Virus record (IMG/VR): IMGVR_UViG_3300025108_000015
Span: 64,001-128,000 of that record
Strand: one strand, 5' to 3'
DNA from: a virus
Length of the DNA stretch: 64,000 nt
Part shown: positions 33,510 through 41,565 of the stretch, piece after piece
How positions within the stretch are numbered: the first letter of the stretch is position 1
Layout of the letters: every line of letters starts with the position of its first letter
Translations under genes and position numbers: made by a program
Notes under the pieces: generated by a model
The model's input: the letters and a program-made list of their open reading frames with translations, nothing else
Told to the model about the DNA's origin: nothing
Databases searched by the model: none

Positions 33510-34037
33510 GTGAAACGATTACTATACATAACTCTACTTGTGTTGTGTATTCCCTTCTCTATGAAATCTCAAAGTTATGTCAATCCAATCAAATCAATCG
33601 AACACGGGGTTTACACCGACCATAACTTCACATACCCATACACACAAGTGGGTATGGCACTACGTAGTGGGTTATACTTTGAGTTAGGTATGTTAGACCT
33701 ACCTACTGAAATTGATATTGGTTTTAATCAAACTATCCAACAACGAGCTGGTAGACTGGCTTGGATGATAAACAATATGGAAGAGCCAGTTGGATATAAA
33801 GGAAAACCTCGATATAAAGAATTTTACTATTCAGTTGGGTACGTTGGTCAATTCAAACGTTATAGAGGTGTTATACAATATGGATATTCAAACGAAGACT
33901 CTATGATTAAGATGTCAAATTATTATAGAGCAATAGATTCATCTCCTGGCCATCTCGATATTGGAGTACACTTACAATATGGAATGAGACGTAGGTTTTT
34001 ATTTATTGGGTACTCTTGGGGAATTCACCTCAACTAA
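33510..34037 (+). CDS. Putative exported protein
   Basis: Signal-peptide-like N-terminus; beta-rich. Confidence 0.5.
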   Translation: MKRLLYITLLVLCIPFSMKSQSYVNPIKSIEHGVYTDHNFTYPYTQVGMALRSGLYFELGMLDLPTEIDIGFNQTIQQRAGRLAWMINNMEEPVGYKGKPRYKEFYYSVGYVGQFKRYRGVIQYGYSNEDSMIKMSNYYRAIDSSPGHLDIGVHLQYGMRRRFLFIGYSWGIHLN

Positions 34038-34041
34038 ACAT

Positions 34042-34097
34042 TTAACAATTTCTTAACATACATCGTTTGGTAAATCCGACATTTATCCTTATATTTA
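34042..34097 (+). promoter_or_regulatory. Direct-repeat promoter
   Basis: TTAACA 34042 and 34053, TTG 34067, TATATTTA 34090. Confidence 0.8.
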
Positions 34098-34416
34098 CTA
34101 TGTAATAATGAGAGAGATGATGAAAGATAGTTTTAAGTCAGTTACCGAAATGGCAAAGAGTGACATTTCAAAATATATAGGTGAGTTGAAGAAAGATGAA
34201 TCTACTGAGTTTAAGAACAACAAACATCTTCATAGGATTGGTCGTAAGTTTTCAAGTGGGAAATACAACTCACCACAATACGGACCAAACGATTGTTTTT
34301 TAGTTGGCGATACAATTTATCACGAGTCATATATCTACTCGACTGAAATGTTGTTCTCAAAAGAAACAAAGTGGTTAAACAAACAATTAGGAATTCACTC
34401 GGTAAATAAATAAGTT

Positions 34417-34761
34417 ATGTCAGTATTTAAAAACACCAAACCAGTAAACTCGATTGAAGAGTTTGAGAATCAGTTAGTTAATCAATTGACTGCCCATTAT
34501 AAGGGTTGGTTTAAAAGTTATAATCCCACTTCGACTCCCGAAGTCAAAATCAACAAGGGGTCTAAGTTCTACAAGATTATCGTAGGAACTTCGGTATGGG
34601 GGTTCATCGCAAGAATCCCATTCGTTCACAAGGGTATCCAACTGAAGAAGGGTGACTTGATGAAACCTGCCGGTTGGTCGGCTGCTGCTAAACATTCTCG
34701 TGGTAATGTAATTGAAGGAACTGCAATGTACGGACCATATGGACCTATGTACCTAAAATAA
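34417..34761 (+). CDS. Conserved phage hypothetical protein
   Basis: KFYKII...VWGFI...KKGDLMKPAGW.A.AKH.RGN motif recognised from T4-like marine phages. Confidence 0.65.
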   Translation: MSVFKNTKPVNSIEEFENQLVNQLTAHYKGWFKSYNPTSTPEVKINKGSKFYKIIVGTSVWGFIARIPFVHKGIQLKKGDLMKPAGWSAAAKHSRGNVIEGTAMYGPYGPMYLK

Positions 34762-39419: not shown

Positions 39420-39493
39420 GGACTCGTAGCTCAGCTGGATAGAGCATCTGCCTTCTAAGCAGACGGTCATAGGTTCGAATCCTATCGGGTTCA
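39420..39493 (+). tRNA. tRNA-Arg(TCT)
   Basis: Canonical cloverleaf: TCTGC-CTTCTAA-GCAGA, GGTTCGAATCC. Confidence 0.95.
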
Positions 39494-39585
39494 CATAGAG
39501 TGGGTAAAAAGTTTAGTACACCTCTGCAGGGGTAAATGTAAGTTACTATTAATAGGACTACGTATCCTAACGACTACTCTTATTT

Positions 39586-39657
39586 GCTCGGTTCGTCTAT
39601 CGGTTAGGACCTATGGTTTTCATCCATAAAAGAGGGGTTCGATTCCCCTACCGAGTA
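39586..39657 (+). tRNA. tRNA-Glu(TTC)
   Basis: TATGG-TTTTCAT-CCATA, GGTTCGATTCC. Confidence 0.93.
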
Positions 39658-39661
39658 CAAT

Positions 39662-39732
39662 TGTCCGATGGTGTAATGGCAACACTTCTGTTTTTGGTAC
39701 AGACATTCAAGGTTCGAGTCCTTGTCGGATAA
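39662..39732 (+). tRNA. tRNA-Gln(TTG)
   Basis: TCTGT-TTTTGGT-ACAGA, GGTTCGAGTCC. Confidence 0.93.
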
Positions 39733-40052
39733 CTAAGTTTACTAAAGTTGAGTAGACTATTTATTTAAAATTAAATTACAAAGTCATGAGTAAAATTTCA
39801 AGAAGATTATTCCAAGCATTGGAATCAAAATATACGGCAGAGATTATGGATGCAAGAGCACGTATCTCTATCTACTTTGAAAATCCGGTAGCTATCGGAG
39901 AACACCCACAACATACTGAAGAGATTGATTTGTTAGTATCACAGTTGACTGATGCTACTGATAAACTATCTACACTACGTGATAACTTTGGCCAAGAGTA
40001 TGGTGAGTTTGATGATAACGACAAACAAGTATTAAAGGGATAATATCCGCTA

Positions 40053-40137
40053 GGAAGATTGGCAGAGTGGTCGATTGCACTGGTCTTGAAAACCAGCGTA
40101 CAGCAATGTACCATAGGTTCGAATCCTATATCTTCCG
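40053..40137 (+). tRNA. tRNA-Ser(TGA)
   Basis: CTGGT-CTTGAAA-ACCAG, long variable arm, G73. Confidence 0.95.
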
Positions 40138-40210
40138 CAATTCGCAGTCAAGTATTTTATATTTTATTTGTTTTATTCAAAAAATTGTTGTATATTGTAT
40201 AAACAATAAC

Positions 40211-40282
40211 GCGGGAGAAGACTTAAAAGAAAGTCGTCTATCATCCAGATAGAAGGTGTTGGGGCAGTACCAACCTCCCGCT
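40211..40282 (+). tRNA. Non-canonical tRNA-Gly(TCC)-like RNA, copy 1
   Basis: Perfect stems GCGGGAG/CTCCCGC, GACT/AGTC, TCTAT/ATAGA, GTTGG/CCAAC; loops CATCCAG and GGCAGTA; U73. Confidence 0.8.
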
Positions 40283-40350
40283 CAAAGAGAATGGTTAAAG
40301 ATTGGGATAAGGCCGCTCAATTTAAGCTACCGGTTATCATTCTCTATAAT

Positions 40351-40422
40351 GCGGAAGAGGAGTTAAGAGAAACTCGTTGAACATCCAGTTCAAAGATGGT
40401 GGGGCGGAGCCACCCTTCCGCT
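40351..40422 (+). tRNA. Non-canonical tRNA-Gly(TCC)-like RNA, copy 2
   Basis: Perfect stems GCGGAAG/CTTCCGC, GAGT/ACTC, TTGAA/TTCAA, GGTGG/CCACC; loops CATCCAG and GGCGGAG; U73. Confidence 0.8.
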
Positions 40423-40428
40423 CAATAA

Positions 40429-40501
40429 GCGAAAGTAGCTCAGCTGGTAGAGCATCACCTTGCCAAGGTGGGGGTCGCGAGTTCGAATCTCGTCTTTCGC
40501 T
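40429..40501 (+). tRNA. tRNA-Gly(GCC), canonical
   Basis: TCACC-TTGCCAA-GGTGG, GAGTTCGAATCTC, U73. Confidence 0.95.
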
Positions 40502-40805
40502 CTAAGATTCTTAATGAACAAGAAAGAACACATATCTAAACTTTGGAATAAGAAAGACGTATCTGATATAATTCTGATGATGTATACTCTTATAGAAAAT
40601 ACTGATTGGGATGTAACTGAGAAGAAGAAGTCATACGCTGTATTGAAGGGTATAATTGCATACACTGATAGGGGTGATGACTTGTTATCACATCATAGAG
40701 ATTACTTACACAAAGAATGGAGTGATGCTTGGGAAGACCAAATAGATAACTCAGCAAGAGAAGAAATAAAAGAGTGGTTATTAGGACCAGCACTTTAATA
40801 AGAAT

Positions 40806-41240
40806 ATGATACATTGGTTTTATGGACAGCCAGGAAGTGGTAAGACCACACTGGCTAAAGCTATGATAAGTAACTCACCTCAATTGGAGTTTAAGAAACA
40901 CATACATATTGATGGTGATGAAATGAGAACTATCTTTAATAATAAAGATTACTCAAAAGAAGGTAGGTTGAATAACTTACGTAATGTTAATAATATAGCA
41001 AGATTCTTAGAATACAAAGGGTACGATGTATTCGTATCAGTTGTTGCTCCTTACAATGATATACGTGATGAGCTAAGGGATTTAGATATTAATTACTATT
41101 ACGTACATACAACTGAAACGAGGGGTCGTGAAGATTACTTTGCGTCTGATTTTGAATTCAACGACTCTGATATTAAAATTAACACAACAAACAAATCAGT
41201 TACTGAATCATTAAATGAAGTATTCACTATTCATAGGTAG
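40806..41240 (+). CDS. cysC: Adenylyl-sulfate (APS) kinase-like
   Basis: WFYGQPGSGKTT, IDGDEMR, DYSKEGR..N, VSVVAPY...R, YVHT. Confidence 0.75.
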   Translation: MIHWFYGQPGSGKTTLAKAMISNSPQLEFKKHIHIDGDEMRTIFNNKDYSKEGRLNNLRNVNNIARFLEYKGYDVFVSVVAPYNDIRDELRDLDINYYYVHTTETRGREDYFASDFEFNDSDIKINTTNKSVTESLNEVFTIHR

Positions 41241-41565
41241 GTGGCAACCATGGCACGAAGGTCATCAATGGTTAATTGACCAAGAGTTAAATAAAGGTAA
41301 TAACGTTTGTCTTGCTATACGAGATGTGGAGGTTGATGAGAATAACCCATGGACCGCTAAACGTATACAAATGAGATTGGGTCACATTCACTACGACTTG
41401 ATAACTCAAGGTAGAATTAAAACTGTTATTATTCCTGACATACAATCGGTTAACTATGGTAGAGGTGTGGGTTATGACATAAATGAACACGTGCCACCAC
41501 AAGAGGTATCCGACATATCAGCTACTAAGATTCGAGAACAAATGAAAAAAGATGGTAAGTTATAA
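41215..41565 (+). CDS. Small HxGH-class nucleotidyltransferase
   Basis: FIGRWQPWHEGH and ISATKIRE. Confidence 0.8.
   Translation: MKYSLFIGRWQPWHEGHQWLIDQELNKGNNVCLAIRDVEVDENNPWTAKRIQMRLGHIHYDLITQGRIKTVIIPDIQSVNYGRGVGYDINEHVPPQEVSDISATKIREQMKKDGKL

Follow-up and report, generated by a model that had tools for sequence, protein, structure and literature searches.

Two tRNA-Gly-like RNAs in a phage tRNA array

We analysed a stretch of 64,000 nucleotides of viral DNA (the window), which comprises bases 64095-128094 of a 172,976-bp IMG/VR virus record (IMGVR_UViG_3300025108_000015) with about 35% G+C and an estimated completeness of 90%. The window contains a tRNA array in which two 72-nt RNAs resemble tRNA-Gly(UCC) and depart from canonical tRNAs in the same places. 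We refer to these look-alike RNAs as copy A and copy B; they are listed first, and the features around them follow.

40211..40282, + strand: tRNA-Gly-like RNA copy A, 72 nt from G1 to U73, with C at 40283; anticodon loop CAUCCAG, D-loop UAAAAGAA, T-loop GGCAGUA
40351..40422, + strand: tRNA-Gly-like RNA copy B, 72 nt, with C at 40423; anticodon loop CAUCCAG, D-loop UAAGAGAA, T-loop GGCGGAG
39420..40138, + strand: upstream array tRNAs Arg(UCU), Glu(UUC), Gln(UUG) and Ser(UGA) (ARAGORN, Rfam)
40168..40198, + strand: promoter-like site TTG-N20-TATATTGT, read from the sequence, about 12 nt upstream of copy A
40284..40350, + strand: structured spacer, with a 10-bp closing stem (40286-40295 with 40336-40345) around an inner hairpin
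40429..40502, + strand: canonical tRNA-Gly(GCC) (ARAGORN; Rfam tRNA, 68.3 bits), 5 nt downstream of copy B

For both copies, the minimum-free-energy structure is a 7/4/5/5-bp cloverleaf whose stems consist of Watson-Crick pairs throughout. The predicted energies are -29.2 kcal/mol for copy A (z -4.2 against shuffles) and -28.3 kcal/mol for copy B (z -3.0). The copies differ from each other at 18 positions, 12 of which make up six compensatory pairs (one in the acceptor stem, one in the D stem, three in the anticodon stem and one in the T stem), and no pair is broken. The covariance model R1 scored copies A and B at 102 and 101 bits, respectively, and a search with it identified them as the sole family members in the phage's own genome record.

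An earlier reading of this DNA, made from the letters alone (the sequence-only reading), had described the pair as two Watson-Crick cloverleaves under selection that standard finders would likely miss. Both statements held. Neither copy was found by ARAGORN at default settings or by the Rfam model RF00005, even at E<=10; a relaxed ARAGORN run called copy B as tRNA-Gly(tcc) and still did not call copy A. ARAGORN and Rfam both recovered the other five tRNAs present in the array, all of ordinary type (Arg UCU, Glu UUC, Gln UUG, Ser UGA and Gly GCC), including the canonical tRNA-Gly(GCC) that had been placed at 40429. On the region of the pair, Rfam at E<=10 gave only chance-level matches to YrlA and RAGATH-25. 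The manA two-junction motif had also been considered, and no such Rfam match was obtained at E<=10.

A viral family with conserved and free positions

A first search pattern based on the loop matched 34 viral contigs, and a second pattern, in which positions 33 and 34 were left free, matched 51 viral contigs and nothing in 185,579 prokaryote genomes (one per species). One of the 34 first-pattern contigs (L008) was a chance match, with no match to the covariance model. The sequence-only reading had suggested a covariance model built from the two copies, and the model made in this way yielded 87 copies, 54 of them distinct, from about 50 IMG/VR contigs. We also compared the region and the pair of one relative with 50,697 phage records by blastn, which returned canonical tRNA-Gly or nothing, and no cultured carrier.

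Across the 54 distinct homologues, to which the counts below refer, 99.9% of the stem cells hold standard pairs, and both partners have changed in 13 of the pairs. Covariation scored 0.517, compared with 0.189 in shuffles (0/500 reached 0.517) and 0.06-0.13 with slid partners. Thus, the look-alike family is real and its fold is selected.

G1:C72, C2:G71, G3:C70, U73, C35 and C36, which the sequence-only reading had noted in both copies, are invariant in the whole family (54/54). These positions are the bacterial glycine identity set for glycyl-tRNA synthetase (GlyRS). C32, A37, G38, the U51:A63 pair and C74 are invariant or nearly so, and U51:A63, also noted before in both copies, is therefore a family-wide trait. 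The 3' end does not encode CCA, just C74.

The canonical tertiary-core invariants (U8/A14, G18G19, T54-Psi55 and A58) are absent from the family. A8 and U14 take the places of U8 and A14 in every distinct sequence, as they had been read in both copies. The near-invariant D-loop is U-A-A-R-A-G-A-A, with A18 in 53/54 and G19 in 54/54, so the claim that G18G19 had been lost applies to the GG pair, while one G is kept at the G19 place. The T-loop follows the form G-G-C-R-G (G54 in 52/54, G55 in 53/54, C56 in 54/54, R57, and G58 in 52/54). Both copies lack T54-Psi55 and A58, as reported earlier, and C56 is kept. Since the D-loop retains a G at the G19 place and C56 is also retained, the G19:C56 elbow pair may survive in the look-alikes.

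The anticodon loop is less uniform. Both window copies carry A33 together with C32:G38, in place of the canonical U33 and a non-Watson-Crick 32-38 combination. The break at position 33, found by the sequence-only reading in the CAUCCAG loops of both copies, is not invariant in the family: A occupies this position in 33 distinct sequences, U in 19, and C and G in one each. At position 34, 44 sequences have U and 10 have A. C32 and G38 are able to pair, and one covariant U:A occurs at these positions among the homologues. As an internal control, we used 122 distinct canonical tRNAs from the family-bearing contigs. These have U33 in 122/122, U8 in 121/122 and a D-loop GG in 120/122, and the C32/G38 combination occurs in 0/122.

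The look-alikes belong to phage tRNA arrays, in which 3-9 nt often separate them from canonical tRNAs. They are usually paired, with the loop CAUCCAG in the first copy and CUUCCAG, CAACCAG, CUACCAG, CGUCCAG or UUACCAA in the second. Two third copies (L049:5445-5517 and L039:4963-5035) are intermediates and link the family to phage tRNA-Gly(UCC). The former combines a canonical UUCAAAU T-loop and a D-loop GG with A8/U14 and an 8-nt anticodon loop, CAUUCCAG. We observed this 8-nt loop in tRNA-Gly-like genes of several Mom-bearing phages (L049:5445-5517, L368, L371, L372 and L374). In the contigs L054 and L055, a canonical tRNA-Gly(UCC) is present beside a family member.

Predicted EF-Tu binding and glycine codon use

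EF-Tu affinity was predicted with the additive model of Schrader and Uhlenbeck (Table 2 of PMC3239215), which uses the T-stem pairs 49-65, 50-64 and 51-63. The look-alike T-stem (G49:C65, U/G50:A/C64, U51:A63) gave a predicted value of -9.5 kcal/mol in 50/52 members. The same value was predicted for the staphylococcal non-proteogenic tRNA-Gly, compared with a mean of -10.8 kcal/mol for bacterial Gly(UCC) and -11.2 kcal/mol for the neighbouring tRNA-Gly(GCC).

Glycine is encoded in the phage's own genome by GGT (66%), GGA (18%), GGG (11%) and GGC (5%). Because of this codon use, two UCC-type genes are not called for.

Mom genes of the carrier phage

The carrier is a large tailed phage, as judged from PHROG and Pfam matches to GroEL, a CobT-like protein together with a MoxR-like AAA protein, a GT25 glycosyltransferase and a baseplate wedge protein. 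By the baseplate protein, its nearest cultured relatives are Microcystis phage Mel-JY01 (48% identity) and Flavobacterium phage immuto (40%). Searches with marker proteins for further complete relatives returned mostly short fragments.

The Mom protein of phage Mu has the GNAT fold and uses Gly-tRNAGly to place glycine on adenine N6 in double-stranded DNA (PMC13219725, 2026). It accepts all three E. coli tRNA-Gly isoacceptors and rejects Gly-tRNAAla, and it requires the residues R111 and S124 (PMC13219725). No phage-encoded or dedicated tRNA carrier is mentioned in that paper, and we found no other paper that links Mom with phage-encoded tRNA-Gly look-alikes.

The sequence-only reading had proposed looking for Fem- or GNAT-type aminoacyl transferases in the carrier genome. 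We found the GNAT type, in the form of two tandem Mom genes (G000:C1:33024-33785 and 33769-34563) outside the window, and none of the Fem type. The two proteins match PF25680 with 148 and 166 bits (cut-off 27.1), and both keep R111 and S124 when aligned with Mu Mom. The own genome gave no match to FemAB (PF02388) or PF13480 (Acetyltransf_6) at E<=1, no match to the GNAT-phage-like domain, and no class II aminoacyl-tRNA synthetase core, i.e. no GlyRS-type core.

The Mom pair closes a same-strand run of overlapping or abutting open reading frames (ORFs; L057:36-3031, corresponding to G000:C1:31568-34563). The order of this run is thioredoxin, 2OG-Fe(II) oxygenase, MazG-like PRA-PH pyrophosphohydrolase, an unassigned 77-aa ORF, Mom and Mom, and the run from thioredoxin to Mom is probably one operon.

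Co-occurrence of Mom genes and look-alike RNAs

Among the contigs chosen by the RNA pattern, all eight records that are at least 90% complete carry 2-3 Mom genes, as do two further records that are 87% and 70% complete. These Mom carriers represent about seven distinct lineages, with baseplate identities to the window's phage of 41-76%. The look-alike RNA is absent from all three complete Mom-less relatives (Mel-JY01, immuto and G051). G051, which has terminal repeats, carries a canonical tRNA-Gly(UCC) instead, and Mel-JY01 and immuto, with a similar G+C, have no tRNA-Gly at all. Glycine codon use varies strongly at one and the same G+C (about 34.5%): GGA makes up 61% of the glycine codons of phage immuto, against 66% GGT in the window's phage, yet immuto has no tRNA-Gly.

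Large contigs were also chosen by Mom alone, and 7/7 carry two tandem Moms together with odd tRNA-Gly genes. The anticodon loops of these genes have G33 (CGUCCAG) or are the 8-nt loop CAUUCCAG; most of the genes have A8 and many have a normal T-loop. They scored 40-62 bits in the covariance-model search, compared with 30-37 bits for window-type tRNA-Gly(GCC) and 45-56 bits for some canonical tRNA-Gly(UCC), and because the scores overlap with the latter, the call of an odd tRNA in these seven genomes rests on reading the sequences. A canonical tRNA-Gly(UCC) matched as well in two or three of the seven. Three of them have no detectable homologue of the baseplate protein and are thus more distant phages. 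A third selection, by a pattern for the G33 and 8-nt variants, added two new complete genomes with two Moms each and one near-complete provirus without Mom (G077, described below). As a control, we examined 18 large contigs chosen for a canonical tRNA-Gly(UCC), and found Mom in 0/18 (0/9 of those at least 90% complete) and no odd tRNA-Gly.

Five Mom-bearing fragments (28-66% complete) have no look-alike RNA. They are partial records and uninformative, since about 70 kb separate Mom from the RNAs. The Mom-bearing fragment G052, which is 51% complete, is ambiguous in this respect. In the baseplate tree, no fewer than 2 changes are required to account for the joint trait of Mom and RNA, and Mel-JY01 falls with the window's clade (support 95/95), apart from the clade of G009 and G043.

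A demand for glycine in collagen-like proteins was considered as a driver, and collagen repeats (PF01391) correlate with the RNA less well than Mom does. Such repeats are encoded by 8/10 near-complete carriers tested; the two traits come apart in G009, which carries the RNA but lacks collagen genes, and in Mel-JY01, where the reverse is the case.

In LR756508.1, a 484-kb uncultured phage, four marginal Mom-domain matches of 23-32 bits lie at 159-218 kb in frames of 510-797 aa. These Mom-like domains are possibly fused or very divergent. The tRNA-Gly genes of this phage are of the ordinary type only.

Promoter, spacer and neighbouring genes

The sequence-only reading had placed a promoter directly upstream of the pair. 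The site TTG-N20-TATATTGT is present there, and a sigma-70 scan gave no match to it. The motif is conserved in the relatives: TTTG-N19-TATATTTG or TATATTGT lies at an equal distance upstream of the first copy in 20 of the distinct upstream contexts listed, which include the distant lineage of L050, L054 and L055. We take the site to resemble the -33/-7 promoter type of Bacteroidota. Downstream, tRNA-Gly(GCC) is probably on the same transcript as copy B.

The spacer between the copies is a conserved structure of its own. Seven of the 10 closing-stem pairs show compensatory changes among 12 homologues, the junction motifs UURAAG and YACCGGNYAU are conserved, and the element always lies just upstream of the second copy. 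No Rfam match was found for it (40284-40350).

Beyond the array, two overlapping ORFs (40806-41240 and 41215-41565) match the N-terminal (profile 7-87) and C-terminal (134-229) parts of the phrog_10255 kinase, respectively, and the first also matches APS_kinase. They may reflect a gene split in two, a frameshift or a mistake in the assembly.

A possible role as glycine donors

We propose, with a probability of about 0.5, that the look-alikes are glycylated, poorly decoding donors for the Mom enzymes of the phage. They would be phage-made tRNA-Gly(UCC) paralogues specialised as carriers of glycine for the phage's own Mom and not for the ribosome. In this model, a Bacteroidota-type promoter would drive joint transcription of the look-alikes, the spacer RNA and tRNA-Gly(GCC); the look-alikes would then be trimmed by RNase P and a 3' nuclease and completed with CCA by a host enzyme. 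Loading with glycine by the host GlyRS is proposed because the whole bacterial glycine identity set is kept. Binding to EF-Tu would be weak and the fit to the ribosomal A site poor, owing to A33 or any base at position 33, the C32:G38 combination, the rewired elbow of D-loop and T-loop, and U51:A63. As a consequence, the Gly-RNA pool would stay free for the two tandem Moms, which would move glycine onto N6 of adenine in the phage DNA. The product would rearrange to N6-carbamoylmethyl-adenine and block restriction.

Several observations weigh against this proposal. Mom does not require a special carrier, as the Mu enzyme works with three ordinary E. coli isoacceptors (PMC13219725), and the small Mom phages Mu and Polaribacter phage P12002L have no look-alike RNA. 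The Mom genes and the RNAs are 70 kb apart in the carrier genome. Across genomes, the Mom link appears consistent and specific but is not yet statistically secure given shared descent, because it includes only about two phylogenetically independent contrasts. In addition, the provirus G077 (57,922 bp, 94% complete) has an odd A33 tRNA-Gly and no Mom even at E<=10. This tRNA-Gly (L446:7580-7653) has A8, the loop CAUCCAG and a normal T-loop. The genes downstream of it (L446:7609-11449) encode an HNH endonuclease, a GNAT acetyltransferase, one further ORF, and a 682-aa protein with Amidoligase_2 and GNAT-phage-like domains.

Other observations concern the loss of decoding. Many relatives have, as their second copy, an RNA whose loop is the fully canonical CUUCCAG. 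In the EF-Tu model, canonical phage tRNA-Gly(UCC) genes are themselves predicted at only -9.8 to -10.0 kcal/mol, which makes the argument from EF-Tu a modest one. The sequence-only reading had treated the rewired elbow as diagnostic, and this did not hold. In L633, a 452,799-bp complete IMG/VR phage without Mom, we found a tRNA-Ala(UGC)-like gene (L633:1501-1574, - strand; G3:U70, A73) and a tRNA-Phe(GAA)-like gene (L633:275-348, - strand), both missed by ARAGORN, that share the GGCAG/GGCGG T-loop and an A-rich D-loop and have normal anticodon loops with U33. The elbow alone is thus no evidence for lost decoding, and the alternative elbow belongs to a wider phage tRNA module.

Alternative explanations

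These last observations also bear on the possibility that the look-alikes are working decoders of GGA/GGG, or of all four GGN codons through C32 with an unmodified U34 or A34. The odd elbow and loop would then serve to escape a tRNA-targeting host nuclease or factor, or the RNAs would supply glycine for collagen-like fibre proteins. The Mom link would be indirect, with extra Gly-tRNA offsetting the drain by Mom, or would reflect shared descent of both traits. Besides the CUUCCAG second copies, the L633 tRNAs, the EF-Tu values of canonical phage genes and the collagen repeats of most carriers, this explanation is favoured by the composition of the arrays. Every four-codon box in them has a U34 tRNA, so a UCC slot is expected, and a canonical UCC gene is absent in most carriers. 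The conservation of C32, A37 and G38 also exceeds the identity needs of GlyRS, and tRNA-Pyl and metazoan mitochondrial tRNAs decode without a canonical elbow. Decoding is the main rival, which we nevertheless regard as rather unlikely, because position 33 takes all four bases while it is U in every co-resident control tRNA, and sister variants have 8-nt loops or G33. GGA and GGG make up 29% of the glycine codons, yet two UCC-type genes stand beside one GCC gene, and L054 and L055 hold a family member in addition to a canonical tRNA-Gly(UCC). Furthermore, Mom-less relatives of equal G+C manage without any tRNA-Gly, and collagen follows the RNA less well than Mom does.

The glycine might also be donated to a transferase other than Mom, e.g. 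a different enzyme that has the GNAT fold or is linked to an amidoligase and whose target is a protein, a lipid or a nucleic acid. The arguments from the identity set and the loop apply equally to such an enzyme, and the G077 provirus, with its odd A33 tRNA-Gly directly upstream of the HNH, GNAT and amidoligase genes, could be an example. This seems improbable for the core family, in which Mom is present in every near-complete carrier. FemAB, Acetyltransf_6 and the GNAT-phage-like domain gave no match in the own genome, and Mom is the sole aminoacyl-tRNA-dependent enzyme family found there, in a protein set that is not fully annotated. The sequence-only reading had named glycyl carriers and decoys side by side. 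Comparative evidence (the identity set, the free position 33, the weak T-stem in the model and the co-occurrence with Mom) came to support the carrier half, and nothing came to support decoys or sponges. Decoys of this kind would imitate tRNA-Gly and sequester a host defence factor, for instance a tRNA nuclease or a GNAT toxin that acetylates Gly-tRNA, or would titrate GlyRS. Phage tRNAs do counter tRNA-targeting defences, and a conserved acceptor stem and C35/C36 with relaxed decoding features would suit this role. However, a decoy for an anticodon nuclease should keep the recognised loop, yet positions 33 and 34 vary, and the tight match with Mom is left unexplained. We know of no tRNA-Gly-specific defence target in the presumed hosts, and consider the decoy role very unlikely. 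Hardly any weight falls on the idea that the RNAs are uncharged, tRNA-shaped processing signals, acting as punctuation for RNase P and RNase Z or as stabilisers of the transcript of tRNA-Gly(GCC) and the spacer. They do lie 3-9 nt from other tRNAs and flank the conserved structured spacer, but punctuation has no need to fix C35, C36, U73 and the first three acceptor pairs in all 54 distinct sequences when the stems are free to covary.

Comparison with known systems

The closest parallel to the proposed glycine donors is found in Staphylococcus, in which the non-proteogenic tRNA-Gly(UCC) species NP1-NP3 donate glycine to FmhB, FemA and FemB (PMC7826273; PMC3239215). Like NP1-NP3, the phage look-alikes are extra tRNA-Gly(UCC) paralogues that keep GlyRS identity, have lost the D-loop GG and the T-loop T-Psi, and have a weak T-stem, both being predicted at -9.5 kcal/mol for EF-Tu. 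The role proposed for them would also be analogous, as the partner of NP1-NP3 is an aminoacyl transferase with the GNAT fold, not the ribosome. Unlike NP1-NP3, the phage family occurs on virus contigs only, is unrelated by descent and grades into phage tRNA-Gly genes. It also differs in the A8/U14 swap, the G54 G55 C56 R57 G58 T-loop, A33 or any base at position 33, and C32:G38. The carrier genome has no Fem enzyme, and the acceptor is likely to be DNA, not peptidoglycan.

The similarity to Mu lies in the enzyme. The window's phage has Mom-family proteins with R111 and S124 in its own genome, Mom is present in every near-complete carrier, and a tRNA-Gly body with glycine fits the co-substrate class of Mu Mom. 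Mu uses host tRNAs and has no tRNA gene of its own, whereas the carriers, with genomes of 167-253 kb, combine 2-3 Mom paralogues with 1-3 dedicated RNAs.

Phage tRNAs of the T5 type and those of mycobacteriophages have altered anticodon loops and escape tRNA-targeting host defences. The look-alikes resemble them as phage genes within tRNA arrays that depart systematically from the host consensus. The T5-type and mycobacteriophage tRNAs keep U33 and a canonical elbow and decode, whereas the look-alikes have a free position 33 and a rebuilt elbow, and their occurrence follows Mom and no known defence. G18G19 and T54-Psi55 are likewise absent from tRNA-Pyl and metazoan mitochondrial tRNAs, which are still folded and charged. 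Those tRNAs differ from the look-alikes in having U33 within an anticodon loop of the normal 7 nt, and their ability to decode is established.

Implications

A broader picture can be drawn more tentatively, and we see it as possible but doubtful. Large phages might possess an insulated, tRNA-dependent pathway of DNA modification in which orthogonal carriers, charged by GlyRS and hidden from EF-Tu and the ribosome, feed paired Moms. The elbow might mark a wider class of 'private' tRNAs (Gly-, Ala- and Phe-like) that standard finders miss. The conserved family that these finders overlook occurs on well over 100 viral contigs when the looser variants are included. As natural tRNA scaffolds that would be charged by GlyRS and avoid the ribosome, its members might be of use in orthogonal-translation work.

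If the look-alikes are glycine donors for Mom, they would be the first case of a viral tRNA reserved for work outside the ribosome, and the first dedicated carrier for DNA hypermodification. The solution found for the staphylococcal cell wall, a tRNA-Gly kept from EF-Tu, would have arisen again in phages. This would explain how phages of 170-250 kb may glycylate very many adenines without starving translation.

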